A DNA stretch of 64,000 nt, from assembly GCA_964620905.1 (NCBI GenBank), contig CAZUKA010000001.1:455646-519645 (forward strand), read 5' to 3'. Made by a program: the position numbers and the translations under genes. Numbering within the stretch: the first letter of the stretch is position 1; every line of letters starts with the position of its first letter. The notes beneath the pieces are model-generated. The model had not been told where the DNA came from, searched no databases, and worked only from the letters and a program-made list of their open reading frames with translations. Source of the DNA: an uncultured Gammaproteobacteria bacterium. Its GTDB lineage: Bacteria; Patescibacteriota; Patescibacteriia; S139-126. Of the stretch, positions 26,994 through 43,320 are shown piece after piece.

Positions 26994-27021
26994 TTCTAAA
27001 TTCTAGATTCTAGATTCTAAT
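26994..27021 (+). repeat. Heptamer tandem array TTCTARA x4 (ttctaaa ttctaga ttctaga ttctaat). It overlaps the stop codon of the LTD-protein gene.
   Basis: Read directly from the sequence. Confidence 0.7.
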
Positions 27022-28135
27022 CCACTTTTCCCTGAAACCATACTCCCCAACCAACTACCAAAACTGTCTGCTTAATTTTATGCCAAACAACCTGCAAATG
27101 ACGTGGGTTATTTTTTTTGGTATAAACAGCTATTTTTGGCTTAACTATTTTATTTTGTAAATTGATTGTTTTGCTAACTGAATCATTATTACCAACCACA
27201 GTTAAATTCATTTCCCCATTACTCAATAAAAAGGCCTGCGTCTGTCCACAAATCCAGCGATTGTTTTGCCAAATACACCCCTTGCCCTTAGCTCGCCAAA
27301 TATATTCAGCCTCAGCTGAACATGTTTCATCGTCAACTGTTCTGACCAAATCTTCTGTACAGTACAAAAAGCCAGAGCTTTCTGTGCGAGTTTGCTCTCG
27401 CTGCACACTATTTATACAAGCACTATCTTGCCAAGCCGAGTACACACAAGCACAACTATTATCTACTTCTATTTGGGTAAAATTTTCCCCACAAGCTAGG
27501 TTGGTATAATAATACTCTACCATTGCCTGTCCATCACTCTGACAAACTCTATTTAATTCTATTGGTTCACATACTAAAACTTCACAACCAAAATTTATTG
27601 CCCGAGGCGTGCCCTGGGCTAACTCACTATTTTGCCAAGCGCTAGTAAGATTACCATCAACCACTGGACACACTCTTTCCATTGTCTGCTTAGTGGTATT
27701 GTCCCCCGCTGGCCACAGGTCAAACACCGCGCTATCAACACTCTGGGCTAAATCATTTTTCAATACTAAATCACTTCCGGTATTACTCAAAGACCCGGTA
27801 TAAATCTGATCCGCTACTACCCCTGGCACGGTGTCATCATCAGTTCGTTCTAATAAAAAATATCCACTAGCCGAAATACTACCAGTCAGATTGATAACAG
27901 TACTTCCCCAGCTCAAACTCCAACCAGTTAAAGCAATTTCCTCACTGGTGGTATTTTTTAGCTCAATCCACTCATCATTGGCGCTGACAGAAGTGCCCAT
28001 CCAAGCAATTTCATTGATCACCACTGGGGGCGCCTCATAAGCCTTGACTGGTGAGGACTTCACCACTCCAAAAAAGAACAAAAAAACCAGCACGGTCAAA
28101 ATAAAACCAGGCTCAAAAATTACTCTCTCCCTCAT
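27017..28135 (-). CDS. Secreted lamin-tail-domain (LTD) protein with a Cys-rich C-terminal region
   Basis: Signal/TM N-terminus, then the LTD signature …VVINEIAWMGT…DEWIELKNTTSEEIALTGWSL… A C-terminal half with about 14 Cys residues. Confidence 0.7.
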   Translation of the reverse strand: MRERVIFEPGFILTVLVFLFFFGVVKSSPVKAYEAPPVVINEIAWMGTSVSANDEWIELKNTTSEEIALTGWSLSWGSTVINLTGSISASGYFLLERTDDDTVPGVVADQIYTGSLSNTGSDLVLKNDLAQSVDSAVFDLWPAGDNTTKQTMERVCPVVDGNLTSAWQNSELAQGTPRAINFGCEVLVCEPIELNRVCQSDGQAMVEYYYTNLACGENFTQIEVDNSCACVYSAWQDSACINSVQREQTRTESSGFLYCTEDLVRTVDDETCSAEAEYIWRAKGKGCIWQNNRWICGQTQAFLLSNGEMNLTVVGNNDSVSKTINLQNKIVKPKIAVYTKKNNPRHLQVVWHKIKQTVLVVGWGVWFQGKVD

Positions 28136-28395
28136 AAATTTTTTTTAATAATTAGCTAATTGCCCTAGGGGCAAATATTTTCCTCGAGTCTAATATAACA
28201 AAAAAAGAAAAATAAGTAAAATTATAAAATTGATCTATAATTTCTACCTACCGGCAGGCAGGGCTTCTTCTGAAATCCTCAATCAAGAGACCCTGAATCA
28301 AGTTCAGGGTGACAAAAGTTTAAAAATTATAAAATTAGAGTTTATTTAAAAATTATAAAATTACAAAATTAAATATTGATTTATTATTTACAATT

Positions 28396-28415
28396 CCTGC
28401 CTGCCGGCAGGCAGG
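28396..28415. repeat. Perfect 20-bp GC-rich palindrome CCTGCCTGCC|GGCAGGCAGG followed by TAAAATTTAcAATT. A second copy lies at 36246-36259 and a partial copy (cctaccggcaggcagg) at 28247-28262.
   Basis: Seen directly. It is unusual GC content within AT-rich intergenic DNA. Confidence 0.7.
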
Positions 28416-28450
28416 CAGGTAAAATTTACAATTATTCTATCTCCTAAATC

Positions 28451-29068
28451 CTACTCCACCAATTCCGCTTTCACCACCAACCGATGGGAAGTTGAATAAA
28501 GTGGAGTACATGAAAAAATAGTCAAAGTTGGTTGTTCAGTCGGTTTCAGTATATCCACGCGATCAGGAGTTATTACTTCAATCTCTATCACTCGATAAGT
28601 ATAGTCCTGATCCAACCAACGAACATATATTTCATCACCCACCTCCATTTTATCTATCTCCCAAAAAGTCCTAGGATCCGGTGGTTCATACAGCCAGCGG
28701 TGCGCTGACAAAACTGTATTTGAACCTTTGTCAGGCGTGGAAGTACGGGGTAGATGCCATACACCACGGTTGAGCATCTCGGCTCCACCTTCATAAATTG
28801 CACTATCAACTCCCATTTTTGGTATTACAATCCAGCTGCCTTCACGACTAGCAGACGAAGAAATATAAGCATCTTGATAATCTTTGACTACTTGTTCTTC
28901 ACCTGATGGCAATACTTCAAACTGACCAAAATTACTTCCCGTTCCCTGCCAAATCTGTCCACGCCAAATAACCACCAATCCGACAAAAATCAAAATTATT
29001 CCTAACCATCGCCACCATATGACGTATTTGCCCATTTGTTGTCTAATTTTTTTTAACCATTTTTTCAT
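28451..29068 (-). CDS. Sortase (transpeptidase)
   Basis: N-terminal TM anchor; conserved His (VLSAHR), a TLxTC-like motif (TLTIFSCTP) and Arg (SHRLVVKA). Confidence 0.8.
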   Translation of the reverse strand: MKKWLKKIRQQMGKYVIWWRWLGIILIFVGLVVIWRGQIWQGTGSNFGQFEVLPSGEEQVVKDYQDAYISSSASREGSWIVIPKMGVDSAIYEGGAEMLNRGVWHLPRTSTPDKGSNTVLSAHRWLYEPPDPRTFWEIDKMEVGDEIYVRWLDQDYTYRVIEIEVITPDRVDILKPTEQPTLTIFSCTPLYSTSHRLVVKAELVE

Positions 29069-29180
29069 AGTATATAAATAGTAAAATAATATAACATTTT
29101 TTACAAATAAATTTTTATTTTATAATTTTATAATTTTTAAATAAATTTTAATTTTTAAATTATTCCGACCTTCCGCTTCC

Positions 29181-29327
29181 TGAAGTGCAAATATTGCCAA
29201 TAAGCGAGTGGGATTTGCCTCTCAACTAGCGAAGCGCTTTTGAGAGGCACACGAGCGTTTGGTAATTTTGCCTGAACGTAAGCGCTGGTCGGCAATTTTT
29301 GCTACTTTTTGTTGTCAAAAAGTAGAA
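29181..29327. repeat. Copy A of a ~148-nt repeated structured element, ~85% identical to copy B at 36036..36184. The shared sequence is tgaagtg…attgccaataagcgagNgg…gcctctcaactagcgaagcg…ttttgagaggcac…cgagcg…ttggYaattttgcctgaac…gctactttttgttgtcaaaaagtagaaa.
   Basis: Nested stems: attgccaa/ttggYaat, gcctctcaa/ttgagaggc, and ctacttttt/aaaaagtag. The last hairpin carries a compensatory t/a insertion in copy B. It sits in the 5' intergenic region of the sortase gene. Confidence 0.65.
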
Positions 29328-29402
29328 ATAAAATTACTTTAAAACAAAAACTCCCAATTTAATTTAGGAATTTTTGGCTAAAACTAAACAAAAAATCTAG
29401 TA

Positions 29403-30533
29403 TTAATCATGATTAACCCGCTTGCGTAAAAAGCTCAACAAAACAATTATCACTAAATATACCCCCAATGCCCAAAGATAATAATAAGAAATATTTTTTC
29501 CACTTTCAATAATATTTCGACTAGGATTATAACCCAACCATGACAAAATTTTACCACCTGTAGTTGGTAATTCATCATAACCCTGATCAGGAGTTTCAAA
29601 TCCTAAAATAGCGGGGACTTCTTCATCAGGCAATTCTGGAGTTTCAAATCCCCTTACCTGCACGATAGTAAAAGGAAAATCATCTTCTGCAAAATAACCA
29701 TTATCTTGTCGTCCATTGACACTTACTTCAACGTGATTGATAAATTCACCGACTACCCCAACCGGCACATTCATGTCATAAGCGATAATCCTCACTTCAT
29801 TGGGCTGCAGGCTGCCCAAATTCCAAACCTGCGTAGATAAGCCATTATTTACAAAAGTAAACCCAGTTGGCAAAGTATCAGTCACCACTACATTTTCTGC
29901 CACTGCACTACCGGTATTACTGATGGTGAGTAAATAATAACCCGTCAGACCTGGCACTACTGAACTGTCACCTGACTTTTGAATATTTATAATTGGTTGC
30001 GGTGTAGAACCACTACCGCCTCCGCCACCGCCAGATCCCCCACCACCTCCAGATGAACCACCAACAAAACCAACCAGCAAATCAAAATAAGTAGAAAGTT
30101 TTTGATAATCATTGCCAATCACCGAAGGAAAACGAACTGTAAAATCATATCGTTCAGTGCTCCCACCTGCTTGACTGGAAAGCACTACTTCGCCATCTGC
30201 AAAAAAACCAGCCAATGAATTTTGGTATAAAAGCGTAGCTCCTTGTCTTACTTCAAACTGCAAAACATCTGCCAAACAAAACGGGTCAGCACTACAATCA
30301 TAAGTATTTAAAGCTTGCACTCCAACTGTTTGCATACTACCTGTAAAATTGGTCACTTTGACCCAGCGCGTGGTGGCATCGCCAGGTTTAGTGTCAAGAT
30401 CCAAAAACAAAGGTGAACTTTGAAATTCAACATTTATATTTTGCGCCTTTATATCTTTGGCACCAAACAAAAAAGACATTACCAAAAACAGACTGACAAA
30501 AAATATATTTCTAATTGTATTTTTGTATTTCAT
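29403..30533 (-). CDS. Cell-wall-anchored protein with a signal peptide, a TasA-like N-terminal domain, a Gly-rich linker, a DUF11/CARDB-like domain and a C-terminal LPTTGG sorting signal. The start is set at MKYKNT, 10 codons inside the ORF-track start.
   Basis: MKYKNTIRNIFFVSLFLVMSFLFGAKDIKAQ signal. …LDLDTKPGDATTRWVKVTNFTG… resembles the L-PGD core of TasA/camelysin. DUF11-like LTISNTGSAVAENVVVTDTLPTGFTFV. …YDELPTTGG followed by a TM segment and a basic tail. Confidence 0.65.
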   Translation of the reverse strand: MKYKNTIRNIFFVSLFLVMSFLFGAKDIKAQNINVEFQSSPLFLDLDTKPGDATTRWVKVTNFTGSMQTVGVQALNTYDCSADPFCLADVLQFEVRQGATLLYQNSLAGFFADGEVVLSSQAGGSTERYDFTVRFPSVIGNDYQKLSTYFDLLVGFVGGSSGGGGGSGGGGGGSGSTPQPIINIQKSGDSSVVPGLTGYYLLTISNTGSAVAENVVVTDTLPTGFTFVNNGLSTQVWNLGSLQPNEVRIIAYDMNVPVGVVGEFINHVEVSVNGRQDNGYFAEDDFPFTIVQVRGFETPELPDEEVPAILGFETPDQGYDELPTTGGKILSWLGYNPSRNIIESGKNISYYYLWALGVYLVIIVLLSFLRKRVNHD

Positions 30534-30537
30534 AATA

Positions 30538-31491
30538 TTAATCATCACAATGTCCAGGACCAATTAGACCATTATTATAATCATCCAACAGTTCAGCCAA
30601 AGTATTAAACTGTTGTTTAACTGGATTATTTCCCGCCAGAGCCCCGATATCAGCTGGGGTATATTGTCCAAATAAATCAGCCGCGCTAGTAATTGCTGTT
30701 TGCACTTCAGTTGGTACACTAGCTCCATTTAATTGATTTAAAACCGCCGCAATATACTGGTGAGCTAAGCTAAAATATGAATTTCCTCCAGCTGGCGGGG
30801 TATTGATTACATCATAATATGTCAGTTCACTTAAATAAAATATAGTATCTTCACCAAGCAAAGTCCAAGTGTCATCATGCGGCGCTGGACCATACTTTGA
30901 ATGTGTTTTCCAATAACCTTGAGTCAAAGTGCAACTTTCGCCTTCTTCTTGCCATTCTCCTGAATTGATAGTAAGTTGTACAATCGTTTGATCTGTATAT
31001 CCGCCACTTTGAGAATCATTTATTTCTTCTTGCCAACCTTGGAAAGCCATATTAAACTGACAAGTTTGAGTTTGCAAAGTTTCATCATTGGTAGTCATAA
31101 TCGCTGACAAATCATAATCCCCACTACCACCAGCCAGCAAACTATTGTCAGACCAAGTCGCATTATCCTGAATCGGACCGTCATAAAGCAAAGTTGCACC
31201 CCGATATATTTTTAAATTCAATGCTGGACACAAAACACCAGTGGTGTTTTGCAGGGTGGTATTATATTTTATTTTCAACTGACCGTTGTTAGCAACCACC
31301 ACATTTGCTGTCGCTGTTTGTGTATCAGATACTGTAGGTGCAAAATCTACCCGATTGGCATCAATATAAAGTGTAGCCATGAGCCAATAGTTATCCGGTG
31401 AAATTTCTTCATCAGAAAAAAATGATGCTGTCAGACCAATTTGTGAAATCATAAACATAACTACCAACATAGCCAAACCCAACACAGTCAT
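30538..31491 (-). CDS. TasA/camelysin-like secreted protein with a SipW-cognate-type signal peptide. The start is moved to the internal Met (MTVLGLAML…); the 87-codon upstream extension in the ORF track is rejected.
   Basis: MTVLGLAMLVVMFMISQIGLTASFFSDEEISPDNYW… carries the TxAxFSDxExS motif typical of SipW substrates. The upstream extension is highly basic, lacks a signal-peptide logic and overlaps sipW. Confidence 0.65.
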   Translation of the reverse strand: MTVLGLAMLVVMFMISQIGLTASFFSDEEISPDNYWLMATLYIDANRVDFAPTVSDTQTATANVVVANNGQLKIKYNTTLQNTTGVLCPALNLKIYRGATLLYDGPIQDNATWSDNSLLAGGSGDYDLSAIMTTNDETLQTQTCQFNMAFQGWQEEINDSQSGGYTDQTIVQLTINSGEWQEEGESCTLTQGYWKTHSKYGPAPHDDTWTLLGEDTIFYLSELTYYDVINTPPAGGNSYFSLAHQYIAAVLNQLNGASVPTEVQTAITSAADLFGQYTPADIGALAGNNPVKQQFNTLAELLDDYNNGLIGPGHCDD

Positions 31492-31748
31492 TTTTTTCTG
31501 CCCTATATAATACGCTTGATAAAGCCGTCCGTAACAGTTGGCTATAAAAATTTTTGGTTTTCTAGTTTTTTTCCGCCAATATAAATTAAAATAACCCAAC
31601 TGACTTTGTATCTGTTTGATAGTTTTTTTCCGCTGACGTTTATACCACCGACTAAAAACTTTAAACTGACGAATATAAAAACGACTAAACAACCGCTGAC
31701 AGCGAATAATTTTTTTCTTATACTGGTTTATTTTTTTATACCAATATT

Positions 31749-32300
31749 TCATTCTTTATCTTTAGCTTGATTTTTTTTGTGTTTTAATTCTCGCCAAATA
31801 TTCATAACCTCATCATAGATTATAAACAGCGCCGGTAGTACTATAATGATAAAAAATCCCAAGGGCTGTTTGGCTGCCGCTACCGCGTAACCAACATAAG
31901 GAATATCAAATAAAACTTTACCCAATATCCGGCTACTAAAAACCGCTTCTCCATCCGGAGCATTGTTGGCATCACCTTTAGTGGTGTAACTTGGGCGATT
32001 ATTTACAATTTCCTTTTCCACAATCCGGTGCGTAGTTGGTATGTTCTCGCCGCGATTAGCAAAAGTAATTATATCTCCCTCCTGATAAGTATCAGCTTTC
32101 CTAATCACCACCACCGCGCCAGTATGAATCGTGGGTTCCATAGAACCAGACTGCACCACATAGACTTGAAAATTACCTGGAATAGGAAAACGTGTTCCTA
32201 CCAACAGTAAAGCGACGCCCAAAATAGCTCCGATCACTACATAATATATAATTTTGAAAAATACTTCAGTTGTTTTTTTTGTTTTTTGCTTTTCGTTCAT
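31749..32300 (-). CDS. sipW: SipW-like signal peptidase I, archaeal/ER type (S26B)
   Basis: …GSMEPTIHTGAVVVIRK…GDIITF…HRIVEK…TKGDANNAPD… This shows the Ser/His-type motifs and the TKGDNN box of SipW-type peptidases. It is distinct from the P-type lepB at 9150..9749. Confidence 0.75.
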   Translation of the reverse strand: MNEKQKTKKTTEVFFKIIYYVVIGAILGVALLLVGTRFPIPGNFQVYVVQSGSMEPTIHTGAVVVIRKADTYQEGDIITFANRGENIPTTHRIVEKEIVNNRPSYTTKGDANNAPDGEAVFSSRILGKVLFDIPYVGYAVAAAKQPLGFFIIIVLPALFIIYDEVMNIWRELKHKKNQAKDKE

Positions 32301-32313
32301 AAACAGTCAATAA

Positions 32314-33696
32314 TTATTCACCTGCAAACAAACTCTGACAAGTAAACTGGTTGTTATTACGCACTTGGGTAGCATAGAAAATCACATCAGTCACCAAAGA
32401 ATCTGTCTGGGTGATATTGTTCATACTAATCGGATCACAAACAAAATCTCCTGTTTGATTATCAACTGTCAAAGTGCCAGCACACCAGGTAAAACCGATA
32501 TATTCGGTGGAAGTGGCAGTCAAAATATAATCATTTTGACTGTCAGCATAAGCCAGTCCGTTGCCATTGATAAATATGTTTTCATAAGTATTTGGGCCGG
32601 CTAAAGTTTGTTCATTTAACGGATTATACAAACCATCACCATCATCCCGCCAAGCAAACACATTTAGATATTGTGATAGCTCACCGTCGCCCAAACCTAG
32701 ATCATTACAAGTATTATCAACAACTGATTCTGGTTCAGTGCAACCATTTTCAAAATCTTTATCATTTTCTGTGTACATACAGGTATAAGCATCATTGTCA
32801 TAAACATGCATACTAATCACGTGCTTGCCCATATCCCCGGGTTTTACATCTTCAAACTGAAAAAATTTCTGGGTAGTAAGATCTGCTTCACTCCATAGTT
32901 CACATACACTGCCGTTTATTTCATAAGTACAATTTATCGGGTGCACACTGACATTGTCCAAAAACACACCTAAAGAATTATTTGTTCCTCCGCCTTCAAA
33001 TTCTATCTTAGTTGAGGCGTTACTGGCGGTAAATTCCTTGGTATATTCAGTCCAAACAATACTACCTCCTCCACCTACCGGACCAATAGTTTCCACTAGA
33101 TTACCGTCAATATTGACATACATAATATTCTCACCATCGCCGGTATTTGGCCGCGGCGCGAAATAATAATGCAGTTTATACTTTTGACCCGGAGTAGTTG
33201 GAATAAATTGATGAATCTTAACCAAAGCCGGTTCACCATTTAATGGATTGTCAGGACCAAACCAGTCTGAATCAAGTTCAGCATATTGATCACCGTCTTG
33301 GGCACTGCCCAATACGCCTTCATGATATTCTACAAGTGAGGGATCTGGCCGGTTTTGACCATTGTAGGTTGTTTCCGAACCAGCCCATTCTACTGTCCAT
33401 TCCAATCCTGTAGTGCCATTGGGGAAAATCTGCCACTGGGCATTGTGGGTCACTTCTGGCACTTCAAAACTACCATTTAATATCAAATTGTTAGTAGTGT
33501 CTTCTACACAATCCTCTTCACATTCCTCCCCGTTATAAACAATTGATTTGTGATCTATTTTCAAATCAATCGCACCGGCAGTAAAGGTATTGCCAGTGGA
33601 GGTTTCGGTGTCGCTGAAAAAGGCAGTGGTACCGCCGATGACAACCGCCGCACTAATGGCAATTGCCAACATACTAAATAAAATCTTTTTGCGCAT
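32314..33696 (-). CDS. TasA/camelysin-like secreted protein with a SipW-cognate signal peptide, plus a ~170-aa domain shared with the vWA giant protein
   Basis: MRKKILFSMLAIAISAAVVIGGTTAFFSDTETSTGNTFTAGAIDLKID…FFQFEDVKPGDMG… A central domain NGSFEVPEV…QYAELDSDWFGP…LGVFLDNVSV is homologous to residues in 39904..43320. Confidence 0.75.
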   Translation of the reverse strand: MRKKILFSMLAIAISAAVVIGGTTAFFSDTETSTGNTFTAGAIDLKIDHKSIVYNGEECEEDCVEDTTNNLILNGSFEVPEVTHNAQWQIFPNGTTGLEWTVEWAGSETTYNGQNRPDPSLVEYHEGVLGSAQDGDQYAELDSDWFGPDNPLNGEPALVKIHQFIPTTPGQKYKLHYYFAPRPNTGDGENIMYVNIDGNLVETIGPVGGGGSIVWTEYTKEFTASNASTKIEFEGGGTNNSLGVFLDNVSVHPINCTYEINGSVCELWSEADLTTQKFFQFEDVKPGDMGKHVISMHVYDNDAYTCMYTENDKDFENGCTEPESVVDNTCNDLGLGDGELSQYLNVFAWRDDGDGLYNPLNEQTLAGPNTYENIFINGNGLAYADSQNDYILTATSTEYIGFTWCAGTLTVDNQTGDFVCDPISMNNITQTDSLVTDVIFYATQVRNNNQFTCQSLFAGE

Positions 33697-33732
33697 AGTT
33701 TTAGGTTTAATATTTATAATTAAATTTATGTG

Positions 33733-33951: not shown

Positions 33952-35313
33952 TTAGTCACGTACCTGAACTTGAAAAGCAGGGCGTGAACCAGCGGTAGTA
34001 GCAGGTGTCCAATTAAACTCAACCATACCAGTTAATATAAAACCACCTGAAAGATCTTCCGAAGAAATAACTAAATATTTTGCATCAGTATTGTCAGTAT
34101 CAATTAAAACGTCCGGATTAAGCGCGTTTCCGTCTAACTTCAAATTAGTTAATTCAACGCTATCTCCAGCACCTGACGATACCTTACCTGCAATAATATT
34201 AAGATCAGCAGTATTAGTTACTGGTCCTACTACATAACTTGCAGTATTTCCATTAACAGTAAAGCTGGCAGTATTTCCATCATAATTTACTGTAAATGGA
34301 ACTGGTGTTCCGGAAGTCATGACATTATTTGTATGATTCATTGTTCCAGAATTTTGTGTATTTGTACCTACACCTACCTCCCAATCACCAGTCATAGTAT
34401 TACTACCGAAACGACCTTCTGATTGCCATTTTAATACTCCGGGACCATTCCATCCATCAAAAGGACCTTCAGCATTAATAACAACCTCATTCAAACTATC
34501 ACAAGTAAATCCAGCATTGTTTCTGGATTGAACTGCATAGAATGAAACATCAGCTTTAATACCATCAGTTTGAGAAACATTGGTTACTGGCTGACCATTA
34601 CAGGTAAACCCTGTACCACGTCCACTCAATGGACCATTCTCACCTGTCTTACCAAATGTATCTTGTGGAACAGCATCAAATCCCAACTCACCATAACACC
34701 AGTACTTGGCAATATAATAAGTTTGTGCGCCGGTTAATGGGGCGATATTTTGCGCAAGCCATACATTTTTTTCTGAATCAGATAAAGTCCAATACTTACC
34801 ATCAAATAAATCCTTAGCCAAACCTTCCTTAAATATAACTTCACCTTCTTCATAAACATTATCACCATCATCAGCCCAGAAAGCAAAATACAATTCATTT
34901 TGTAATTCACCTTCATTTTCACCAGCTGTTAAATCTTCCTTAGCTTCTGGCTCTGTTTGACCATTTTCTAGAGTGGCAGTTAAATTAATATTCATACAAG
35001 CCCAAGCATCATTATTATTGACATGAAGTGAGATTGTATCTTCACCACGATCGCCAGGTTTTAAATCAAGGAAATTGAAAAAAAGCTGATTAGTCAAATC
35101 GCTTAATCCCCAAGAAGTTCCATTGTTATAAACCAGTACACCATCTTCATTGGTGACATAGCTCTCATTGTCAATGGTCAAATCAATCGCACCGGCAGTA
35201 AAGGTGTTGCCAGTGGATGTTTCGGTGTCGCTGAAGAAAGCAGTAGTACCACCGATAATGACGGCAGCGGCTGCAGCGATTGCCACCAAACTAAATAAAA
35301 TTTTCTTTTTCAT
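33952..35313 (-). CDS. TasA/camelysin-like secreted protein with a SipW-cognate signal peptide. Paralog of 32314..33696.
   Basis: MKKKILFSLVAIAAAAAVIIGGTTAFFSDTETSTGNTFTAGAIDLTID…LFFNFLDLKPGDRGEDTISLHV… The N-terminal 45 aa are nearly identical to the paralog. Confidence 0.75.
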   Translation of the reverse strand: MKKKILFSLVAIAAAAAVIIGGTTAFFSDTETSTGNTFTAGAIDLTIDNESYVTNEDGVLVYNNGTSWGLSDLTNQLFFNFLDLKPGDRGEDTISLHVNNNDAWACMNINLTATLENGQTEPEAKEDLTAGENEGELQNELYFAFWADDGDNVYEEGEVIFKEGLAKDLFDGKYWTLSDSEKNVWLAQNIAPLTGAQTYYIAKYWCYGELGFDAVPQDTFGKTGENGPLSGRGTGFTCNGQPVTNVSQTDGIKADVSFYAVQSRNNAGFTCDSLNEVVINAEGPFDGWNGPGVLKWQSEGRFGSNTMTGDWEVGVGTNTQNSGTMNHTNNVMTSGTPVPFTVNYDGNTASFTVNGNTASYVVGPVTNTADLNIIAGKVSSGAGDSVELTNLKLDGNALNPDVLIDTDNTDAKYLVISSEDLSGGFILTGMVEFNWTPATTAGSRPAFQVQVRD

Positions 35314-35859: not shown

Positions 35860-36035
35860 AATCAGAATATTTTACTAATATTAGGGAAGATATTAATAAT
35901 GAAACGGCCGTTTACTTTGGGAACAGTTAAAAGTTTATCCTGCTAAATAAGCGGGGCAGGAATGACAAAGATTTAAGAAGTAAGATTTAAGAATAAATAA
36001 ATAGTTAATTATTATTTAATCGGCCATTTACTTTG

Positions 36036-36184
36036 TGAAGTGAAAAATTGCCAATAAGCGAGCGGAATTTGCCTCTCAACTAGCGAAGCGATTTTGAGAG
36101 GCACGCGAGCGGTTGGCAATTTTGCCTGAACCAAAGTACTGGCCGTAGTTTTTTGCTACTTTTTTGCTAACAAAAAAGTAGAAA
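36036..36184. repeat. Copy B of the ~148-nt repeated structured element (see 29181..29327). A degenerate partial third copy lies at about 35897-35960.
   Basis: Aligned by eye to copy A, with about 85% identity and conserved stems. Confidence 0.65.
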
Positions 36185-36202
36185 GAATAAATACTCTTTA
36201 TT

Positions 36203-36311: not shown

Positions 36312-36340
36312 ACTATATCCTTAATCCTAACTCCTATATC

Positions 36341-37060
36341 CTAATTGAACAACCTAACTAGCCACCCCAGCAAACTAATCTTTCCTGCCTGTTCTCTTTG
36401 TGCAATAAAATTATCAATCTTAGTTTGTTCTGCAGTCAAAGTATCAATCTGCTCTTGCAGTTCTGTTTTATCAACTTCATCTACCACGTCTGCCAGCAAA
36501 CGATTCAACTGTTCCAATCTATTTCTGGTCTGCACCATTTCACTGCGCAGAGCGCCTAGATTTTTGTAATCAGATCCAAACAAAAATGTTTTGATTTTAC
36601 TTCTGGTTTGTACTTGCTCCATGGCTTGTACTACTTTGTCAGTTGAAGAACTTTGCGCTCTGGCTACTTCTCTCACCTGCTCACCAATACCACCCGGCTC
36701 TCTATCAGCTACACCAAGTAATCCTTGAACAAAATTAGCAACTGCACTGCGATGCTCCAAAGCATTCACTGATGCTCGATTGCGATTCTTGACCGGTGGT
36801 GTAGTGGTTGGTGTGGTAGTTGCTGTACTGGTAGCGGTGGAGGTAGCTGTAGAAGTACCGGTGGAAGTTGATAATAGAGTGTTTGGTTGAGTATCATCCA
36901 CACTACCATCACCCCGCTGTTTCAATCCTGGTGCTTGGGCAGATGCACCATTTACTGGTTGGTTGTCATCTTCCCCTTTTCTAGCTTCGGCCGTTCCAGC
37001 CAGCAAAACGACTGCCAATACAAACAAACCTAAAACAATAAAAAACTTATTTTTTGTCAT
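36341..37060 (-). CDS. Secreted protein with a Thr/Ser-rich low-complexity linker (TSTGTSTATSTATSTATTTPTTTP) and a C-terminal coiled-coil
   Basis: Signal peptide MTKNKFFIVLGLFVLAVVLLAGTAEA. A low-complexity (ST)-rich stretch is encoded by imperfect DNA repeats near 36800-36870. The C-terminus is heptad-like and rich in Leu, Gln and Glu. Confidence 0.55.
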   Translation of the reverse strand: MTKNKFFIVLGLFVLAVVLLAGTAEARKGEDDNQPVNGASAQAPGLKQRGDGSVDDTQPNTLLSTSTGTSTATSTATSTATTTPTTTPPVKNRNRASVNALEHRSAVANFVQGLLGVADREPGGIGEQVREVARAQSSSTDKVVQAMEQVQTRSKIKTFLFGSDYKNLGALRSEMVQTRNRLEQLNRLLADVVDEVDKTELQEQIDTLTAEQTKIDNFIAQREQAGKISLLGWLVRLFN

Positions 37061-37200
37061 AAATTTTCACTTAATAATCAGTAAATCCATTATACCACTC
37101 ATGAATATTTGGAAAACAACCAAAACCCCACTCTACCAAAAAGTAAAGCGGGGTTTTATATGAAAATTTATAAATTAATAATTGATTTAAAATTAATAAT

Positions 37201-39690
37201 TTATAATTTATAATTCTTCTCCATACTATATCTACTCACCAAGTAACCACCAGCAATAACTACGAGTAAACCATATATGGTGAAATCACGACTGGCTGCT
37301 GATCCCCCAGTTTCAGGTAATTCTTCATATCCTAAAACTTGCACTTCAGCTGGTTCTTCAACTTCTACTTCAAAACCCAAAACTTGCACTTCTGGCTCTG
37401 GAGTTGGCTCTTCCAATAATGTCTCAACTGGTTCTTGGGGCGTTGGTTCTTGGGGTGGAGTTGATTGAGTAGTTGCAATAGGTCCACCGCCACCACCTCT
37501 GACTGGATACTCACAACTACCATCATTTTTATTGGCCTCAGCATCATAGTTCAATGCCGTGGGATCAGTACAACCATAAACTGGATCAACATAGCGATTT
37601 AAAAAATACACTTCCTCAAAACAACCATCCAATGTAATTTGATGAATACCCGCACCTCCTGGTTGAACTTGCTGCCAATCTTCTGGTATTACTTCTGATA
37701 CAGTATAGTCACCGTAAGGTAAATCTGTAAATTCTACACAACCTGATTGGTCAGTCACTTTTGATTGACTGATTTCATTGCCATTGAGATTTATTGTCCA
37801 ATTGGACAACGGGATACCCGGCAATAAACTTAATGCTTGAGCAGTTTTTATTTTGATGTTATCCCAAAGTTTTGCTAAACCAGCCACCAAAAAATTATCA
37901 TTTTTTACCTGCTGATTGTCAGCCGGTACACAATCATAGATTAACCATGTTTCCCAACTATCATTATTTGGTTCACTAGTTAAATAACCATTTTCCGCGT
38001 CCGAATAATCACAGTGACTGTGCGTGTAGTCAAAATAAGGGGCAGCACATTTATAATTATCAGACGTACCAAAATCGCTTACTGCTGGCCTTTGCTCCCA
38101 CTCTTCAGGAGTTGCAAATCTCCAGCCAGGAATTTTTATTGGTTCAACAGTACTACAACTACCTGAACAAGGACTGGCCCAAGCCCAATAACGACCATTC
38201 TTTAGTATAGCCCAGTCAGGCATTTGACTATCAATCAAACATGATGACTCCTCATATTTACAGGCGCGAATTGTTCCGGTTGACTCCGGTACATCACACT
38301 GACCAACAACTTGCAAATGATCAAAGACAAGAGAATTTTCACCAACACAAGCATAGTTTGCCAGCATTACTTTTATTTTACTAAAATTAATATTTGTTCC
38401 TATCTTAGACAGATCAAGTGTCATATAACCACTAGCTGATGGCAATTCAGAATAATGATTAGGATCAGCTGCAGCATAACCTTGATAAATGCCACTAATC
38501 ACTCCATTGCCATAATAAACTTGATAACCAAGATTTGTTTCATTCTCATCAAGAATATATACCACTAAATAAGGAAAATTATACTCATCCATAGTTGAAC
38601 TAAAAGCCAAATAAGCTTCCAAGTCTGTATAATCAGTATTACCAATTATATTGTATATTTTTTCAATATACTGACTGGGACACAATGAATAAGTATTTCC
38701 AACTACGCTGGTCTGTATCGCAGTACTCCCATCATAAGGTGAAGTAATTTCACCATAAGAAAATATAGGATTACCACCAGAATTTGTTACTGACCAAGTT
38801 GATAAACTACCCGGTAAAACTTCATCTATTATCCCACTGCCTGAACAAATTTGATAATTGCCAAAATCCATTTTTCTAACATTCGATCCAGGTTGCAGAG
38901 GGCTTATAGTGTAATAAGTTTGCCCATTAGGCATTGTGGCCTGCCAACCATTGCGAGTTTCTTCCTCTACTTTATAATTTACGTTAGCTGGAACATCATC
39001 AAATCGGTACATTCCTTCGTTATCAGTTTGTACAGAGGTAACCAATACCCAAGCTTCATCTTGTTGACGATATAGAAAAATTGTCCAACCAGCAATACCT
39101 GGGTCATCTGTATCACCCTCGTTTGGTCCCAGTCCATCTCTGTCTAAGTCATTGAACTTCATACCGGAAATAGAACCAGTTGGCACTTGATAATTATAAA
39201 AAGTAACAACGGCTCCATTGGTATCTAAAATATCTACTGCTAATTCAGTAGGGGTTATCTGTCCATATTGTTGATTTGAAACCACTTGCCAACCACTTGG
39301 AGTCCAATTGGTTTTTGTTTCTTCTGTCACTTGATAAACACCAAACTCTAAACCGCTTAACACTACACAACCAGTTTGCCCATCAGTAGTCACTTGTTGA
39401 TTAAATCCAATACTATTATTAATTACCGTCATATTCCAACCCAATAAATAAGGTTGGTCATCACTAGTTGGACCATCACCGGTTAAATCTTGATATTTAC
39501 AAATAGTTAGGTCTCCTGTCAGAGCTACTTCTGCTTGTGAGTTATTGACCAAAAACAATTGTCCATAACCCAAAGAAAATACTAAGGCAATGAGAACAAA
39601 TATCCGGGTACTTGTATGCCATTGCCGCATTCGTTTTTTTACAAAAGTTGAAAACGAACGGGAAAAACGGGAATAATTACTTCCCTGCAT
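37201..39690 (-). CDS. Giant LPXTG-anchored surface protein (829 aa) with SdrD-B/Cna-B-like Ca-binding domains, a Pro/Glu/Thr-rich stalk and a C-terminal LPETGG sorting signal
   Basis: …DLDRDGLGPNEGDTDDPGIAGWTIFLY… (SdrD-B-like). …TPPQEPTPQEP…EVQVLGFEVEVEEPAEVQVLGYEELPETGG + TM (LLVVIAGGYLV) + SRYSMEKNYKL. The start may be the internal Met (MRQWHTSTRIFVLIALVFS…), since the RBS spacing at M1 is long. Confidence 0.7.
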   Translation of the reverse strand: MQGSNYSRFSRSFSTFVKKRMRQWHTSTRIFVLIALVFSLGYGQLFLVNNSQAEVALTGDLTICKYQDLTGDGPTSDDQPYLLGWNMTVINNSIGFNQQVTTDGQTGCVVLSGLEFGVYQVTEETKTNWTPSGWQVVSNQQYGQITPTELAVDILDTNGAVVTFYNYQVPTGSISGMKFNDLDRDGLGPNEGDTDDPGIAGWTIFLYRQQDEAWVLVTSVQTDNEGMYRFDDVPANVNYKVEEETRNGWQATMPNGQTYYTISPLQPGSNVRKMDFGNYQICSGSGIIDEVLPGSLSTWSVTNSGGNPIFSYGEITSPYDGSTAIQTSVVGNTYSLCPSQYIEKIYNIIGNTDYTDLEAYLAFSSTMDEYNFPYLVVYILDENETNLGYQVYYGNGVISGIYQGYAAADPNHYSELPSASGYMTLDLSKIGTNINFSKIKVMLANYACVGENSLVFDHLQVVGQCDVPESTGTIRACKYEESSCLIDSQMPDWAILKNGRYWAWASPCSGSCSTVEPIKIPGWRFATPEEWEQRPAVSDFGTSDNYKCAAPYFDYTHSHCDYSDAENGYLTSEPNNDSWETWLIYDCVPADNQQVKNDNFLVAGLAKLWDNIKIKTAQALSLLPGIPLSNWTINLNGNEISQSKVTDQSGCVEFTDLPYGDYTVSEVIPEDWQQVQPGGAGIHQITLDGCFEEVYFLNRYVDPVYGCTDPTALNYDAEANKNDGSCEYPVRGGGGGPIATTQSTPPQEPTPQEPVETLLEEPTPEPEVQVLGFEVEVEEPAEVQVLGYEELPETGGSAASRDFTIYGLLVVIAGGYLVSRYSMEKNYKL

Positions 39691-39824
39691 AATTTTTATT
39701 GTTAATGATTTTTTACTCTCCTCCTATATATATAAAATAGTTAATACCCGGATTTATTTACTTATATAATAATTTTATATCATTTTTGTCAAATAAGCGA
39801 GACTAAAAAAGTGTGTATAATTAA

Positions 39825-39862
39825 ACCTTTCAACCAAAAAACTCCCTGGCCAAATCGGCCAA
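39825..39862 (-). terminator. Bidirectional terminator (ctccctggcc-aaat-cggccaaggag + U-run) downstream of the vWA giant gene
   Basis: Hairpin flanked by A6 and T5. Confidence 0.7.
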
Positions 39863-39903
39863 GGAGTTTTTCTATCTAAAAGCTAAAAGCTAATCGCTAA
39901 AAG

Positions 39904-42900
39904 CTATATATTGTATCTTCGTACTAAGTAAGTTCCAGCCATAAGTAGTAAAGCTCCAAACCAAGTATAATTGCTAGCTGCCACTGGTCCCCCAGTTTCA
40001 GGTAGTTCTTCATATCCTAAAACTTGCACTTCTGGTTCTTCTGCTGGGGCTTCAGTTTCAAAGCCAAGTACTTGCACTTCTGGCTCTGGGGTTGGCTCTT
40101 GTGGAGGTGTGTCACCGGTTGGTGTTGATTGGGTAGTTGAAATCGGTCCACCGCCACCGCCGCCATAGGTACAACTTTGATCATCATAAGTAGCGTTAGG
40201 GTTGTAATTATTGGCTGATGGATCCATACAACCGGGAATTTCTTCTGAACTATATTGATTACCAAAATTATACTCTGGTGCGGGATCAATATAATTAGCA
40301 ATGACAGCAAATTTTAATGGATTCAAATCAGGTAAAGTTACAGTGTGACAACTAGGGTTTGGATAAGTTTGTATCCAACCACTTTGCTGTACTTCACAAA
40401 TCTTATAATCACCATAAGGTAAATCTTCAAACCAATACCAACCATAATGATCTTGGCTATCTGAAGTATCCTTATAAGTTTCTTCATTGTCCAATATACC
40501 GTTGTCATTGGCATCAATAAATATTCTCCAACCTGACATTAAATCTTCATCGCCACGCTGACCATCACCATCAACATCATTCCATTTATACCCATGAATA
40601 TCACCCGTCGGATCTGGTGGGGTTTCAACTGGCACATTCATCGCCACACAGTAATAGGTATTTCCTTCAGAAACATTTATAAACTCAGAGTTATCATAAT
40701 TTAAGACGTCAGTATCACACCAAAATTCTGCACTAACATCACTACCTGGAGCTGTTGGATATTCAGTTGATGGATAAGAAAATGGGATATAACCTGTTTG
40801 TAATACTTCCCTAAACCACAATTTACCAGGTAATCCAGTCAAATTAATATCTACTTGTGCCGGCTGTTCAGCTGGACCAGTGGCACTGTCAAACATATAC
40901 CAGCCATTCTCGTTGGTTGGACCTACTACATTTCCATCTAGTTTAGGATCAATTTGATGATCACCCCATTGGAACTCCCAACCTTCTTCAAAACGACAAG
41001 CGCCTTGAGAATTATTTACAAAATCTTGTGCAGTACTTGCATTGACTGTTATATCATTTGACCAGTTGGGTAAATCTGTTTCACTGTCACACACAATCTT
41101 ATGAGCAATCACCGTGGCTTTTGGATATGGACATTCAACTAACTCAAGTCTCACATCATCTATAAACATACCAAATGAGTTTGGAGTTCCCATATCAGTA
41201 AAGGTAAGACTTTTCATTGTGCTGTTGTCGTTAACCATTGGATAAGAATAATTATACCAAGTAGTGTCTGTTTCTCCGGTACCATCAAGACTATTTGTTT
41301 GATCAATACTGCCAAACTGTGCTCTGACAATATTTTCGTCTAAGCCATATCCTGGACGTGCAGCCAGTTTGAAAGACAACTGATAGGTTGCATACGGTAT
41401 AACATCTATATTTTGGTATATTACTACTGAAGCTTGTTCATTATTTATTGATCCACCAGGTCCATCCCAATCCGAATCAAGTTCAGAATATTGATTACCT
41501 TCAGCTGGAGTGTATAGTCCACTATTATGCAACTCCAGATTGGCTGTGGCTGGTGCACCGTCATAAGAACCAACCCAACCAACTGTCCAACCTAAATCAG
41601 AGGTACCAGACGGATATATGTTCCAATTTTCAGAAGTATCCACAACTGGAGTTTCAAAATCACCATTAACAACAGTTACCATTCCTGGCACACAAGAACT
41701 TGGAATTTCTTCCAATATACAATTTGGTGTGCACATCCAACCTTCTCTTACTTCATCATTACCATCACATTCTTCACTATCTTGATTGACTATACCATCA
41801 CCACAATAAGGAGCTATACGATTATTAAAAGTACAAGTAATAATATCATTGGCACTAACATCGATTCCAGTGACTGCATTGTCATTCCAAGTGCCTTCTA
41901 CTTCTTGACTTTGGTTATAACAAACAGCATTAGCTACTTCATAACCATTCTCTACTGTTTCAGTCACACTATAGGTACCAGGATTTACTTCTTTGGCTGA
42001 GGTCTGACCATTTTGACCAGTAACTAAACTCTCACCAGCTACATCAAAAGTCCATCCCGCAGTTGGGGTATCATCAATAAGTTTTGTTACAGTAATAGTG
42101 CCGCCGCAAAGATCACTGGCTAGTTGTGCTAGAGTTGTGGCTAAAGCATCAAAACTAGCAGCGCCATAATAAGCATCTGCACTGGAAATTTTTTCCATAT
42201 TTGCCTGACCACCCGCATCAATACCAATTCCAAGGGTAATAATCCTAGTACCAGCTGTTTTTATTGTATTGGCAACTGTAATAGCATCTTCCAAATGACT
42301 CAAAGGACCATCACTTTCTGTTGGTTCTCCATCAGAGGCAAATATAATCAAATTTGGATTTGGTCTGGGATCAAAAGTGCTCCAAGCTTTAGCTAAACCA
42401 TCTTCCCAATTGGTATAACCGCTACCACTAGAAGGTAAACCACCAATAGCTGTAGCTGCTTGAGCTGGGGTTAGAGAAAAATTATTCAATACTGTGGCTG
42501 AAGATGAAAATCTAGTTAAACTAAATTCTGTGGGTGTACCAGAAAAAGCAGTTGCAAATGCTGACAAAGCATTTTTCATTTGTGTCATTTCTGTACTGTT
42601 TATACTACCTGAAGTATCAGCTACCAAAGCAATATCCAAACCGCATGTAGCGCCAAGAGTTGGATTGGTTACTGGTTGAACTGGTAGTGTATAATGAACA
42701 GTTATTGTAATATGATCAACACTGGCTGTATCATTCCCACCACCAGTCCGACCAACAGATAAGACAACACCAAAATCATTATCATTTATATCAGAAACTG
42801 TCCAACTAGTTCCCCAAAGATCACTTGTACCACTACCATAAGTAGCTACAGCATCACTATTCGGCCAATTGGAATTGGTTGCTTTATTGTCTCCAACAAC

Positions 42901-43320
42901 ATTATTATTTTTTACTAACTTAACAATGTTATCTCTAATTTCACCACCATTGTCAGTCTGACTTCTCTCAATGCCAACTTGTATCCCATTAATAATTGCC
43001 CCACTAGGCACTGAAAAACCAAAACCAGTCGCCCTTAAATACTCTGATACATTACTTGAACTTGTAATTGTAACAGTAGCATCAGAATTATTAGAGCTAA
43101 TTGCTCGTCCAGGATTTGACCATGCATGGTCTGCTCCAGAAAAATCAATACTACTAAAACTTGATCCGCTTTGTGGACCAGTTGTTGCAGCAATTGCTTT
43201 CTGAGGAACAGAAAACTGTCCCAGAGATAAAACCATTGTAGCAAGGACCGCGATATACAGTCCGCGTTGCCAAGTCAGGCGTTTATATGCCTGTTTGGTG
43301 TGCTTTAAAACTTTTGACAT
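39904..43320 (-). CDS. Giant LPXTG-anchored adhesin (1138 aa). It contains a signal peptide, a vWA domain (MIDAS DTSGS), a domain shared with the TasA-like protein 32314..33696, SdrD-B-like domains and a C-terminal module paralogous to 37201..39690, ending in LPETGG.
   Basis: …GLDIALVADTSGSINSTEM…IIFASDGEPTESDG…ITLGIGIDAGG… (vWA). …DGDGQRGDEDLMSGWRIFIDANDNG… (SdrD-B-like). …EVQVLGFETEAPAEEPEVQVLGYEELPETGG + TM + RRYNI. Confidence 0.8.
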   Translation of the reverse strand: MSKVLKHTKQAYKRLTWQRGLYIAVLATMVLSLGQFSVPQKAIAATTGPQSGSSFSSIDFSGADHAWSNPGRAISSNNSDATVTITSSSNVSEYLRATGFGFSVPSGAIINGIQVGIERSQTDNGGEIRDNIVKLVKNNNVVGDNKATNSNWPNSDAVATYGSGTSDLWGTSWTVSDINDNDFGVVLSVGRTGGGNDTASVDHITITVHYTLPVQPVTNPTLGATCGLDIALVADTSGSINSTEMTQMKNALSAFATAFSGTPTEFSLTRFSSSATVLNNFSLTPAQAATAIGGLPSSGSGYTNWEDGLAKAWSTFDPRPNPNLIIFASDGEPTESDGPLSHLEDAITVANTIKTAGTRIITLGIGIDAGGQANMEKISSADAYYGAASFDALATTLAQLASDLCGGTITVTKLIDDTPTAGWTFDVAGESLVTGQNGQTSAKEVNPGTYSVTETVENGYEVANAVCYNQSQEVEGTWNDNAVTGIDVSANDIITCTFNNRIAPYCGDGIVNQDSEECDGNDEVREGWMCTPNCILEEIPSSCVPGMVTVVNGDFETPVVDTSENWNIYPSGTSDLGWTVGWVGSYDGAPATANLELHNSGLYTPAEGNQYSELDSDWDGPGGSINNEQASVVIYQNIDVIPYATYQLSFKLAARPGYGLDENIVRAQFGSIDQTNSLDGTGETDTTWYNYSYPMVNDNSTMKSLTFTDMGTPNSFGMFIDDVRLELVECPYPKATVIAHKIVCDSETDLPNWSNDITVNASTAQDFVNNSQGACRFEEGWEFQWGDHQIDPKLDGNVVGPTNENGWYMFDSATGPAEQPAQVDINLTGLPGKLWFREVLQTGYIPFSYPSTEYPTAPGSDVSAEFWCDTDVLNYDNSEFINVSEGNTYYCVAMNVPVETPPDPTGDIHGYKWNDVDGDGQRGDEDLMSGWRIFIDANDNGILDNEETYKDTSDSQDHYGWYWFEDLPYGDYKICEVQQSGWIQTYPNPSCHTVTLPDLNPLKFAVIANYIDPAPEYNFGNQYSSEEIPGCMDPSANNYNPNATYDDQSCTYGGGGGGPISTTQSTPTGDTPPQEPTPEPEVQVLGFETEAPAEEPEVQVLGYEELPETGGPVAASNYTWFGALLLMAGTYLVRRYNI

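Follow-up and report, generated by a model that had tools for sequence, protein, structure and literature searches.

The 64,000-nucleotide stretch analysed here (hereafter the window), from contig CAZUKA010000001.1 of an uncultured bacterium deposited as a gammaproteobacterium and placed by GTDB in the Patescibacteriota, carries at 27017-43320 an island of ten open reading frames (ORFs; A-D, S and F-J in Table 1). All ten lie on the minus strand, at or near the coordinates at which an initial annotation, made from the sequence alone, had placed a co-oriented block of surface-protein genes. The island centres on two subunit genes of one family (F and G, the T family), a SipW-like signal peptidase gene (S) and the genes of two accessory proteins (D and C), and on balance we think that T-S-D-C probably builds a cell-anchored donor-strand fibre of the TasA type.

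F, S, D and C are densely packed, with 13 nt between F and S, a 4-nt overlap of S and D, and D abutting C; G is located 255 nt upstream of F, and the sortase gene (B) 334 nt downstream of C. Because strong terminator-like hairpins were found 3′ of I (37201), H (36341) and the sortase gene (28451), the island comprises several transcription units around one compact F-S-D-C operon and is not a single operon. A six-frame motif scan of the whole window identified exactly three LPxTGG motifs followed by a hydrophobic or transmembrane (TM) stretch and a basic tail (C, I and J) and exactly three FFSDxE-type N-termini (F, G and D), all of them within the island.

Table 1. Genes of the island and the separate LepB gene, with window coordinates and the matches that support each assignment
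Gene	Product	Coordinates	Strand	Evidence
A	secreted lamin-tail-domain (LTD) protein, Cys-rich C-terminal part	27017..28135	-	PF00932 41.1 bits
B	sortase	28451..29068	-	PF04203 94.8 bits
C	TasA-like head, DUF11 stalk, LPTTGG	29403..30533	-	PF01345 44.5 bits
D	candidate TapA-like protein	30538..31752	-	no curated hidden Markov model (HMM); profile-profile comparison
S	SipW-like endoplasmic reticulum (ER)/archaeal-type signal peptidase I	31749..32300	-	TIGR02228 120.5 bits
F	T-family subunit	32314..33696	-	TIGR04088 36.8 bits; PF12389 residues 2-86; TIGR04362 residues 70-251
G	T-family subunit	33952..35313	-	TIGR04088 35.6 bits; PF12389 residues 1-53; choice-of-anchor W residues 293-451
H	239-residue secreted Thr/Ser-rich, coiled-coil protein	36341..37060	-	no family match in Pfam or NCBIfam
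I	829-residue LPETGG surface protein, SdrD_B/SpaA prealbumin-like repeats	37201..39690	-	Pfam/NCBIfam, motif scan
J	1138-residue LPETGG surface protein; VWA, SpaA-fold, choice-of-anchor C, SdrD_B	39904..43320	-	Pfam/NCBIfam, motif scan
LepB	bacterial P-type signal peptidase, outside the island	9150..9749	-	TIGR02227 139.8 bits, cut-off 47

Signals and fold of the T-family subunits

Both T-family proteins scored well above the cut-off of 19 of TIGR04088, the 'cognate_SipW' signal model (36.8 bits for F and 35.6 for G), and both also passed PF12389, so that two of the three SipW-cognate N-termini listed by the initial annotation were recovered with curated models, while the third, that of D, passed none of them and is treated below. 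The first 45 residues of F and G are near-identical, and the 20-residue donor-strand segment, FFSDTETSTGNTFTAGAIDL, is identical in both; phmmer aligned residues 1-56 of the two proteins with each other, and F 267-456 with G 66-274. In G, a SipW-type signal peptide, with cleavage predicted between TTA and FFSD after Ala25, is followed by the donor-strand segment, a TasA-like core (residues 26-285) and a choice-of-anchor W domain. In F, a choice-of-anchor C/DUF642-like domain of ~200 residues is inserted in the TasA-like core, and this choice_anch_C domain is common to F and the vWA protein J (phmmer 5e-30), as had been noticed initially.

A full-length Peptidase_M73 domain was sought in F and G and was not found: of the 196 positions of the PF12389 profile, F matched 3-85 and G 2-53, namely signal and donor strand only, and ten of ten short T homologues covered only ~3-66 of the profile. 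The TasA core claimed for these proteins was therefore tested by structure. AlphaFold2 modelled mature G (residues 26-285, 65-sequence alignment) with a predicted local distance difference test score (pLDDT) of 87.2 and a predicted template modelling score of 0.86; in this monomer model the presumed donor strand, made up of the first 16 residues, was disordered, and the segment is conserved. A Foldseek search of PDB with the G core put the TasA fibre 8AUR at the top (E 2e-4, probability 1.0); 7UEG, an archaeal bundling pilin, came second and the monomeric TasA structure 5OF1 came fourth. This ranking supports a TasA-like β-sandwich (jelly-roll) fold of the modelled T core, at moderate similarity. 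The claimed core thus stood by structure, for the T core and likewise for the N-domain of C, and not by sequence. The family is large, with at least 3086 clusters, some of which are named 'TasA family protein' or 'SipW-dependent-type signal peptide-containing protein' at NCBI.

Across the 65 aligned T cores, the residues W-A-D-D-G-D-N (121-127) and four cysteines (81/181/213/246 of the mature core) were invariant, which suggests a Ca2+-binding loop and two disulfides; a calcium-responsive TasA-like family of archaeal matrix proteins has reportedly been found recently.

The SipW-like signal peptidase

S matched TIGR02228, the archaeal/ER-type signal peptidase I model, at 120.5 bits (cut-off 51.85), and stayed below the cut-offs of both the bacterial LepB model TIGR02227 (31.4 versus 47 bits) and the Bacillus SipW equivalog NF046067 (116.2 versus 190 bits). 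By these scores it is the same type of enzyme as Bacillus SipW, below an orthologue-level match, and its earlier classification as a SipW-type peptidase and not a LepB holds. Its nearest solved relatives in PDB were human SEC11A/C (E 2e-11), with whose motifs the catalytic Ser53 (SGSMEP), His91 (TTHRI) and Asp110 (KGDANN) aligned; these residues, invariant in 20 homologues, correspond to a Ser/His (+Asp) arrangement and not to the Ser/Lys dyad of P-type enzymes. At least 2887 homologues were found (E ≤ 1e-5), and all named ones belong to Parcubacteria or Patescibacteria. The canonical P-type LepB noted at 9150-9749 was also confirmed by its TIGR02227 score (Table 1), and is presumed to process C, I, J, H and A. 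Genetic linkage, T adjoining S in 71 of the 82 loci described next, suggests that S may cut the neighbouring TasA-type precursors.

A four-family module in Patescibacteria

By scanning GTDB species representatives with the peptidase alignment, we collected 80 loci, against whose six-frame ORFs the proteins of the window were searched; counts given for 82 loci comprise these 80 relatives and two metagenome contigs (L001 and L002) carrying the window's own SipW protein. The 80 loci derive from metagenome-assembled genomes mostly labelled as Parcubacteria-group candidate phyla, Patescibacteria or Ca. Saccharibacteria, with Moran-, Falkow-, Kaiser-, Campbell-, Nomura-, Taylor-, Zambryski-, Buchanan-, Nealson- and Portnoybacteria among the named phyla, and the two labelled Gammaproteobacteria and one labelled Bacteroidales are probably mis-binned. 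A co-oriented order T(1-4 copies)-S-D-C recurred in these loci, with T adjoining S in 71 and C downstream of S in 54 of the 82. Where the relatives' loci offered enough flanking sequence, the end of T was no more than 400 nt from the following S in 61 of 72 cases, and C was found ≤4.5 kb after S in 44 of 55. The S-C gap of ~1.7 kb fits a D gene, which is often too divergent for phmmer. Unbiased clustering of the neighbouring ORFs revealed no further conserved partner (for instance a chaperone, usher or ATPase). Judged by gene order and family membership, the conserved unit is thus a four-family module, T(1-4)-SipW-D-C, of Patescibacteria-wide occurrence, in agreement with the expectation that the genes would be conserved together in relatives.

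T proteins and their neighbours in other genomes (P0235, P0224; L020:1-1296, L037:1-642, L012:5881-8895) carry VWA, MAM and other passenger domains. VWA proteins frequently stand directly beside the T-S-D-C module; in L012, a 1005-residue VWA/SpaA/DUF11 protein that follows the sortase ends in LAASG, a TM helix and RRK.

Protein D, a TapA-like candidate

The D gene most likely starts at 31752 and not at 31491, where it had been placed, because a start at 31752 overlaps the sipW stop (ATGA), the N-extension so gained is open and conserved in two relatives, and the internal Met is replaced by Trp in one of them, the more distant relative with 77% SipW identity. This apparent cytoplasmic extension of 87 residues (31492-31752 (-)), extremely rich in Lys and Arg, precedes the signal-anchor and is open and conserved in both L083 and L084. 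The D-like ORFs of several other loci likewise reach far upstream. Behind the basic extension, D is laid out as a TM helix/h-region, a divergent SipW-type site after GLTA with the donor strand SFFSDEEISPDN, a TasA-like domain, and a helical, Cys-containing C-terminal domain (GYWKTH...).

D passed none of the curated HMMs of Pfam and NCBIfam, TIGR04088 included, and the sole support for its SipW-type N-terminus is HHalign, in which the D-family profile matched T at 96.4% over signal and donor strand; profile-profile comparison thus keeps the third of the N-termini first claimed. The N-domains of D and C are homologous by the same method (97.7%, E 1.4e-12, 118 columns), and the best PDB sequence matches of the D-family profile, both weak, were TasA 8AUR (E 0.045) and 5OF1 (E 0.1), so a TasA-like fold of D is supported by homology. 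D, and not C, is the best candidate for a TapA-like protein, serving either as initiator or as distal tip.

In three other loci an LTD is fused to the C-terminus of D-like proteins (L003:4910-6430, L007:10458-12299 and L029:10062-11966), and here it is encoded by the separate gene A (27017-28135). Such fusions are a Rosetta-stone-type link, which suggests that A works with the module.

Protein C lacks a donor strand

C consists of an ordinary signal peptide, a TasA-like N-domain (residues 32-160) without donor strand, a Gly-rich linker and a DUF11/CLIPPER stalk, followed by a tail of two VxxLGFE motifs, LPTTGG, a 27-residue hydrophilic spacer, a TM helix and RKR. In the search for N-domain homologues only four proteins were obtained, the Gly-rich linker swamping the word index, and the alignment used for modelling held six sequences. 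AlphaFold2 nevertheless gave a pLDDT of 83.1 for residues 32-165, and in Foldseek the N-domain matched 8aur_A first (E 4e-5, TMq 0.63), then 7UEG, 9H8B (a Pyrodictium cannula subunit) and chaperone-usher pilins. The model thus supports a TasA-like fold of moderate similarity, and the initial description of C as a TasA-like N-domain joined to DUF11 was borne out. HHalign of C with the T core was not significant and the T-core profile matched no PDB sequence, so that what ties C to TasA is its modelled structure, together with the chain leading from C through D to TasA.

HHalign aligned C to D from exactly past the donor-strand segment of D. Counting with a strict regular expression, the SipW/donor-strand motif was present in 94 of 144 T-like and 28 of 39 D-like proteins, and in none of the 55 C-like ones. 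As neither a SipW-type signal nor a donor strand is present in C or in any of the 55 relatives examined, C would be able to accept a strand but not to donate one, which contradicts its initial casting as a TapA-like nucleator. C-like proteins typically have an ordinary signal peptide, a TasA-like head, a Gly-rich linker, a stalk that is either FN3-like (Pur_ac_phosph_N) or DUF11, and a C-terminal TM helix followed by basic residues. The N-domain family includes 2864 representative clusters (E ≤ 1e-3), the domain nearly always starting ~30 residues from the N-terminus, and no Pfam model covers the head.

A protein that is single-copy, surface-anchored, always beside sipW and D, and without donor strand could also be something other than a structural subunit: a tethered chaperone or assembly platform that transiently holds a donor strand or caps subunits (cf. 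TapA and CapP in Bacilli, and PamC/PamD), or an independent adhesin with a TasA-like head. TM-anchored chaperones have been proposed for another donor-strand pilus of the candidate phyla radiation (CPR; bioRxiv 10.64898/2026.03.03.709456), and TapA is a chaperone and not a fibre subunit (PMC10151520). Known donor-strand chaperones, however, donate a strand to the subunit groove, and the fold of C is subunit-like, with fibre-form TasA as its best match, and not of the two-domain PapD/FimC type, while its stalk and anchor suit a load-bearing base. We therefore consider a non-structural C quite unlikely, and C as a fibre subunit at the anchored end is retained below.

Sortase and the anchoring of C

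The sortase gene and the three LPxTGG proteins reported initially are all present. The sortase matched PF04203 at 94.8 bits (cut-off 26.6) and TIGR01076 at 80 bits, has an N-terminal TM helix, and contains the His-Cys-Arg triad as H123 (SAHRW), C187 (FSCTP) and R196 (SHRLV). Its closest solved relatives are of class C (E 1e-19, versus ~1e-7 for class A) and its best NCBIfam class is also C, but the NF033745 score of 93.4 bits is below the cut-off of 160, and neither a DP[WFY] lid motif nor a C-terminal TM helix or hydrophobic segment was found. On sequence criteria, it fits no curated class.

The C-like anchor is a TM helix in most genomes. A sortase gene occurs within 10 kb in only 4 of the 80 other loci (L012, L017, L054 and L075); L083 and L084, which are the closest relatives, have one as well. 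Where a sortase adjoins, C-like proteins carry sorting signals at the homologous position: LPTTGG in the window and L084, LPTAGG in L083 (in a shifted frame), LAPTG in L012 and LAATG in L075; that of L054 is a degenerate FIKSG, and the contig of L017 ends before C. Among 51 loci without adjacent sortase, a single C-like sorting-signal match was obtained, which is probably spurious. LPT(T/A)GG and the spacer are kept in L083 and L084, at 77% and 89% SipW identity, respectively. The unusual 27-residue spacer is explained by what lies downstream of LPTTGG, where the apparent ancestral hydrophobic motif, TM helix and RKR are kept, and sortase anchoring of C thus looks, from these sequences, like a lineage-specific replacement of, or addition to, the TM anchor.

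In L083 (11830-12925) the C gene is split, with LPTAGG, the TM helix and the basic tail in a shifted-frame ORF of 59 codons, either by an assembly frameshift or by a real disruption of the anchor. A duplicate V(Q/I)(V/L)(L/R)G(F/Y)E motif stands right before the sorting signals of C, I and J (29585-29660, 37315-37385 and 40000-40075 (-)), and VLGxE-like motifs precede LAPTG in L012 and LAATG in L075; the duplicate may extend what this sortase family recognises, or form a wall-spanning module for it.

The correlation of anchor type with sortase adjacency bears on whether two unrelated surface systems simply lie side by side here, T-S-D-C providing TasA-like matrix proteins or adhesins that are secreted or only loosely attached, the sortase serving I and J only, and the LPTTGG of C being incidental or non-functional. 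Mere co-location would leave unexplained that wherever a locus has both an adjacent sortase and C, this C has a motif of the L[PA]x[TS]G type at the corresponding site (degenerate in L054), not seen in C-like proteins elsewhere, that LPT(T/A)GG and spacer are conserved down to 77% SipW identity, and that the duplicated VxxLGFE pre-anchor motif is common to all three LPxTGG proteins. It does agree with the rarity of a nearby sortase, with the several terminators and the gap before the sortase gene, and with an atypical spacer behind which C keeps its ancestral TM helix and basic tail; moreover, C. perfringens strain 13 can form BsaA polymers without the sortase that is encoded beside sipW (PMC7395162). 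Weighing these together, we regard mere co-location as unlikely, and sortase anchoring of C in this lineage as the better account.

The LPETGG proteins and the sortase-pilus alternative

I and J end in LPETGG, a hydrophobic stretch and R/K, with only marginal matches to PF00746 and TIGR01167, and share a C-terminal stalk (phmmer 2e-37), as had been described for these giant adhesins. I forms its own transcription unit, with a terminator-like hairpin of a 17-bp stem at its 3′ side. Both proteins are shared with the 89%-identical relative and were not seen in the locus of the 77% relative; I and J are separate transcription units, linked to the module only in close relatives. The initial proposal of one unit of fibre, sortase and adhesins is therefore narrowed to T-S-D-C, which is conserved, the sortase being found in few other loci and I/J in the 89% relative only.

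These genes could instead encode a Gram-positive-type sortase-polymerised pilus with J (vWA) as tip, I (SpaA-fold) as shaft, C as basal pilin and a class C-like sortase, the TasA-like genes being separate. Tip pilins of sortase-polymerised pili typically have vWA domains, I and J contain SpaA-fold domains with E-box-like motifs, and the sortase is nearest to pilus-specific class C enzymes among solved structures and NCBIfam classes. This sortase, however, scores 93 against the class C cut-off of 160, has neither lid nor C-terminal TM helix, and has no housekeeping partner within the window, and the pilin motif [YFWVI]PK[NDGSTQ] (YPKN-type) was absent from I, J and C. The C-family profile also weakly matched the basal pilin FctB (3KLQ, E 0.0055), over 50 residues; this sign of a sortase-pilus base was set aside, as the fold search with the C model placed TasA first and did not recover FctB. 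A class C sortase pilus was thus rejected as the principal explanation, and we hold it to be very improbable.

Relation to known systems

In B. subtilis, TasA residues 28-38 insert in the next subunit, a subunit's own strand being unreleased until that subunit is complemented, and TapA, itself SipW-processed, starts assembly by donating its N-terminal strand (PMC9674648, PMC10151520). Like tapA-sipW-tasA, the module has a dedicated ER-type signal peptidase encoded between its substrates, TIGR04088-type signals with donor strand, a β-sandwich subunit (8AUR being the best structural match of both models) and a minor donor-like accessory, D here and TapA there. Unlike in B. subtilis, the subunit cores here are larger and Cys-containing, with passenger domains inserted or appended and PF12389 matching N-terminally only; S is below the SipW equivalog cut-off, and the host is a Patescibacterium. 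Nothing in the operon of B. subtilis corresponds to the extra conserved subunit-like C, without donor strand and with a covalent or TM anchor.

The closest parallel to the sortase-linked variant is C. perfringens, where sipW-bsaA-bsaB-bsaC with an adjacent srtB are SipW-dependent TasA-family fibre genes (PMC7395162, PMC11580942). Most strains have an LPXTG-bearing BsaB-like paralogue and SrtB anchoring of the fibre was proposed, and TasA/BsaA operons often include LPXTG, SpaA-domain, choice-of-anchor, signal peptidase and sortase genes (PMC11580942). In both systems, TasA-type fibre genes adjoin a sortase gene, with an LPXTG paralogue as the putative anchor, and anchoring is a hypothesis there too. 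The bsa system also features isopeptide-bond locking of BsaA subunits and type IV pilus-associated secretion, and the anchored paralogue of Patescibacteria, by contrast, is a distinct family that is usually TM-anchored.

The archaeal bundling pili AbpA/AbpB and archaeal threads (7UEG, 7PNB; PMC9245690) are TasA-superfamily donor-strand filaments as well, and gave the second or third best structural match for both models. For them, the accessory subunit AbpB was proposed to start the filament, and PF12389/TasA homologues in Patescibacteria were listed (PMC9245690). The archaeal operon, however, has no nearby dedicated signal peptidase and has other accessory proteins, and no sortase or TM-anchored strand-less subunit was described for it.

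Within the CPR, the Pam pili of Candidatus Mycosynbacter amalyticus form by donor-strand exchange without a trans-envelope machine (bioRxiv 10.64898/2026.03.03.709456), and the Pam operon resembles the present one in that it encodes more than one pilin paralogue, an end subunit without a strand (PamT) and a terminator held by a TM anchor (PamR). By their description, the Pam pilins are set apart as unrelated two-domain Ig-like proteins with ordinary signal peptides, without SipW or TasA and with PapD-like TM-anchored chaperones; the Pam anchor donates a strand, whereas C would accept one, and Pam is reported mainly from Saccharimonadia and Microgenomatia, but the T-S-D-C module was found in Parcubacteria-type genomes.

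Finally, the sortase, the LPxTG-TM-basic tails, the SdrD B-like and SpaA prealbumin-fold repeats and the vWA domain are shared with Gram-positive MSCRAMMs (SdrD) and SpaA pili, from which the island differs by a sortase of no curated class, the lack of pilin motif and lid, the duplicated VxxLGFE before every sorting signal, and one substrate with a TasA-like head.

A literature search pairing SipW/TasA with CPR, Parcubacteria or Patescibacteria found this operon described for no CPR member. Systems of this kind are nevertheless already known, TasA homologues in Patescibacteria and TasA/BsaA operons with LPXTG and sortase genes in Firmicutes having been published (PMC9245690, PMC11580942), and the novelty first claimed was too strong. 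The new elements are the conserved module of four families in Patescibacteria, two hitherto unannotated families, namely D and the anchored C that lacks a strand, and the change of anchor between TM and sortase type.

Proposed assembly of the fibre

From the gene content, family membership, folds, synteny and relation of anchor type to sortase adjacency reported above, we infer the following scheme, which covers cleavage by the SipW-like S, polymerisation, the order of D and C and their roles, and the specificity of the sortase. F, G and D would be exported by Sec, and S would cut their special signal peptides after the TxA site, exposing the N-terminal strand (FFSDTETSTGNTFTAGAIDL in F and G). 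This strand would insert in the β-sandwich of the next subunit, as in B. subtilis TasA, to give an F/G shaft displaying the lectin-like passenger domains choice-of-anchor C and W; mixed F/G fibres are likely because the strands of F and G are identical. D, with a donor strand, a C-like domain, a variable C-terminal domain and a single copy, would be the TapA-like initiator that ends up distal, in the order D-T-C. C, with an ordinary signal peptide for export and its C-terminus holding it to the cell, would sit at the acceptor-only end of the fibre and take the last free strand, as its wall-anchored base or terminator. In most relatives C would be held by the membrane helix, and here it would become covalently bound to peptidoglycan through LPTTGG and the adjacent sortase; the same sortase would anchor I and J as separate cargo.

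Several observations weigh against this assembly. PF12389 is limited to the N-terminal ~50-85 residues of T proteins, and the T-core profile gave no match among PDB sequences. HHalign of C with the T core was not significant, and the C model was built on six sequences only. The 27-residue hydrophilic spacer between LPTTGG and the TM helix of C is unusual, with LPXTG HMMs at or below cut-off; the 334-nt gap means that the sortase is not translationally coupled to C, and few other loci (4 of 80) have a sortase within 10 kb. TasA-family proteins can also exist as soluble monomers.

On a broader scale, T(n)-sipW-D-C may represent a TasA-superfamily pilus that is anchored to the cell, spread across Patescibacteria and not characterised before, and that has no chaperone, usher or ATPase. 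D would be its tip or initiator and bear variable adhesin domains, the shaft would consist of decorated T subunits, and the strand-less C would end the fibre and hold it on the membrane or, in some lineages, via a newly acquired LPxTG/LAxTG motif and a dedicated sortase, on peptidoglycan; we put this forward tentatively, as a possibility that falls short of being probable.

Other features of the island

H has a homologue at L017:4077-4973 (Moranbacteria; phmmer 3e-21), between the sortase and T genes, and is conserved in L084; its membership in the system is uncertain.

The flanks of the island (24039-25712 (-), 25842-26289 (+) and 44623-44982 (-)) contain, on one side, parA/parB-like ORFs together with three tRNA genes (one Leu-CAA, two Met-CAT) and, on the opposite side, an HsmA-family membrane protein; the names parA/parB derive from Pfam matches of the syntenic counterparts in L083 and L084. 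As GC content and skew showed no break at the borders, nothing marks the island as a recent acquisition.

An intergenic repeat of ~190 nt, with copies 80% identical, was found at 35990-36185 (-) and 29135-29330 (-) of the window, upstream of G and of the sortase gene and 45-100 nt past gene ends, and at 6105-6305, 12955-13160, 14100-14290 and 15666-15865 of L084. It folds into a small hairpin and a long rod-like hairpin, with 55 consensus pairs of which 7 are changed on both sides, and matched no Rfam family. An island-specific regulatory RNA tying G to the sortase was considered and rejected, the repeat being present, in both orientations, in contigs L086 and L087 without island genes. It is probably a dispersed repetitive extragenic palindromic/miniature inverted-repeat transposable element (REP/MITE)-like element of the lineage and gives no evidence of co-regulation.

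Implications

Neither Pfam nor NCBIfam has a model for the domain families of C and D, which could enter annotation pipelines. The C family indicates how a TasA-type fibre could be tied to the cell, which is unsettled even for B. subtilis and C. perfringens, and the alternation of TM and sortase anchors within one protein family offers a natural experiment on fibre tethering.

Patescibacteria, ultra-small bacteria of the CPR, make up a large share of bacterial diversity, are mostly uncultured and are thought to live attached to other cells; to our knowledge, the mode of attachment is unknown for most of them. The module is very common in Parcubacteria-type genomes and comprises four gene families only, which makes it a concrete candidate for their surface fibres. 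With its four-gene core kept in relatives, an attachment apparatus is a plausible role for it, and if the assembly proposed here is true, such fibres could be some of the thin filaments on ultra-small groundwater cells and could attach Parcubacteria to their hosts.

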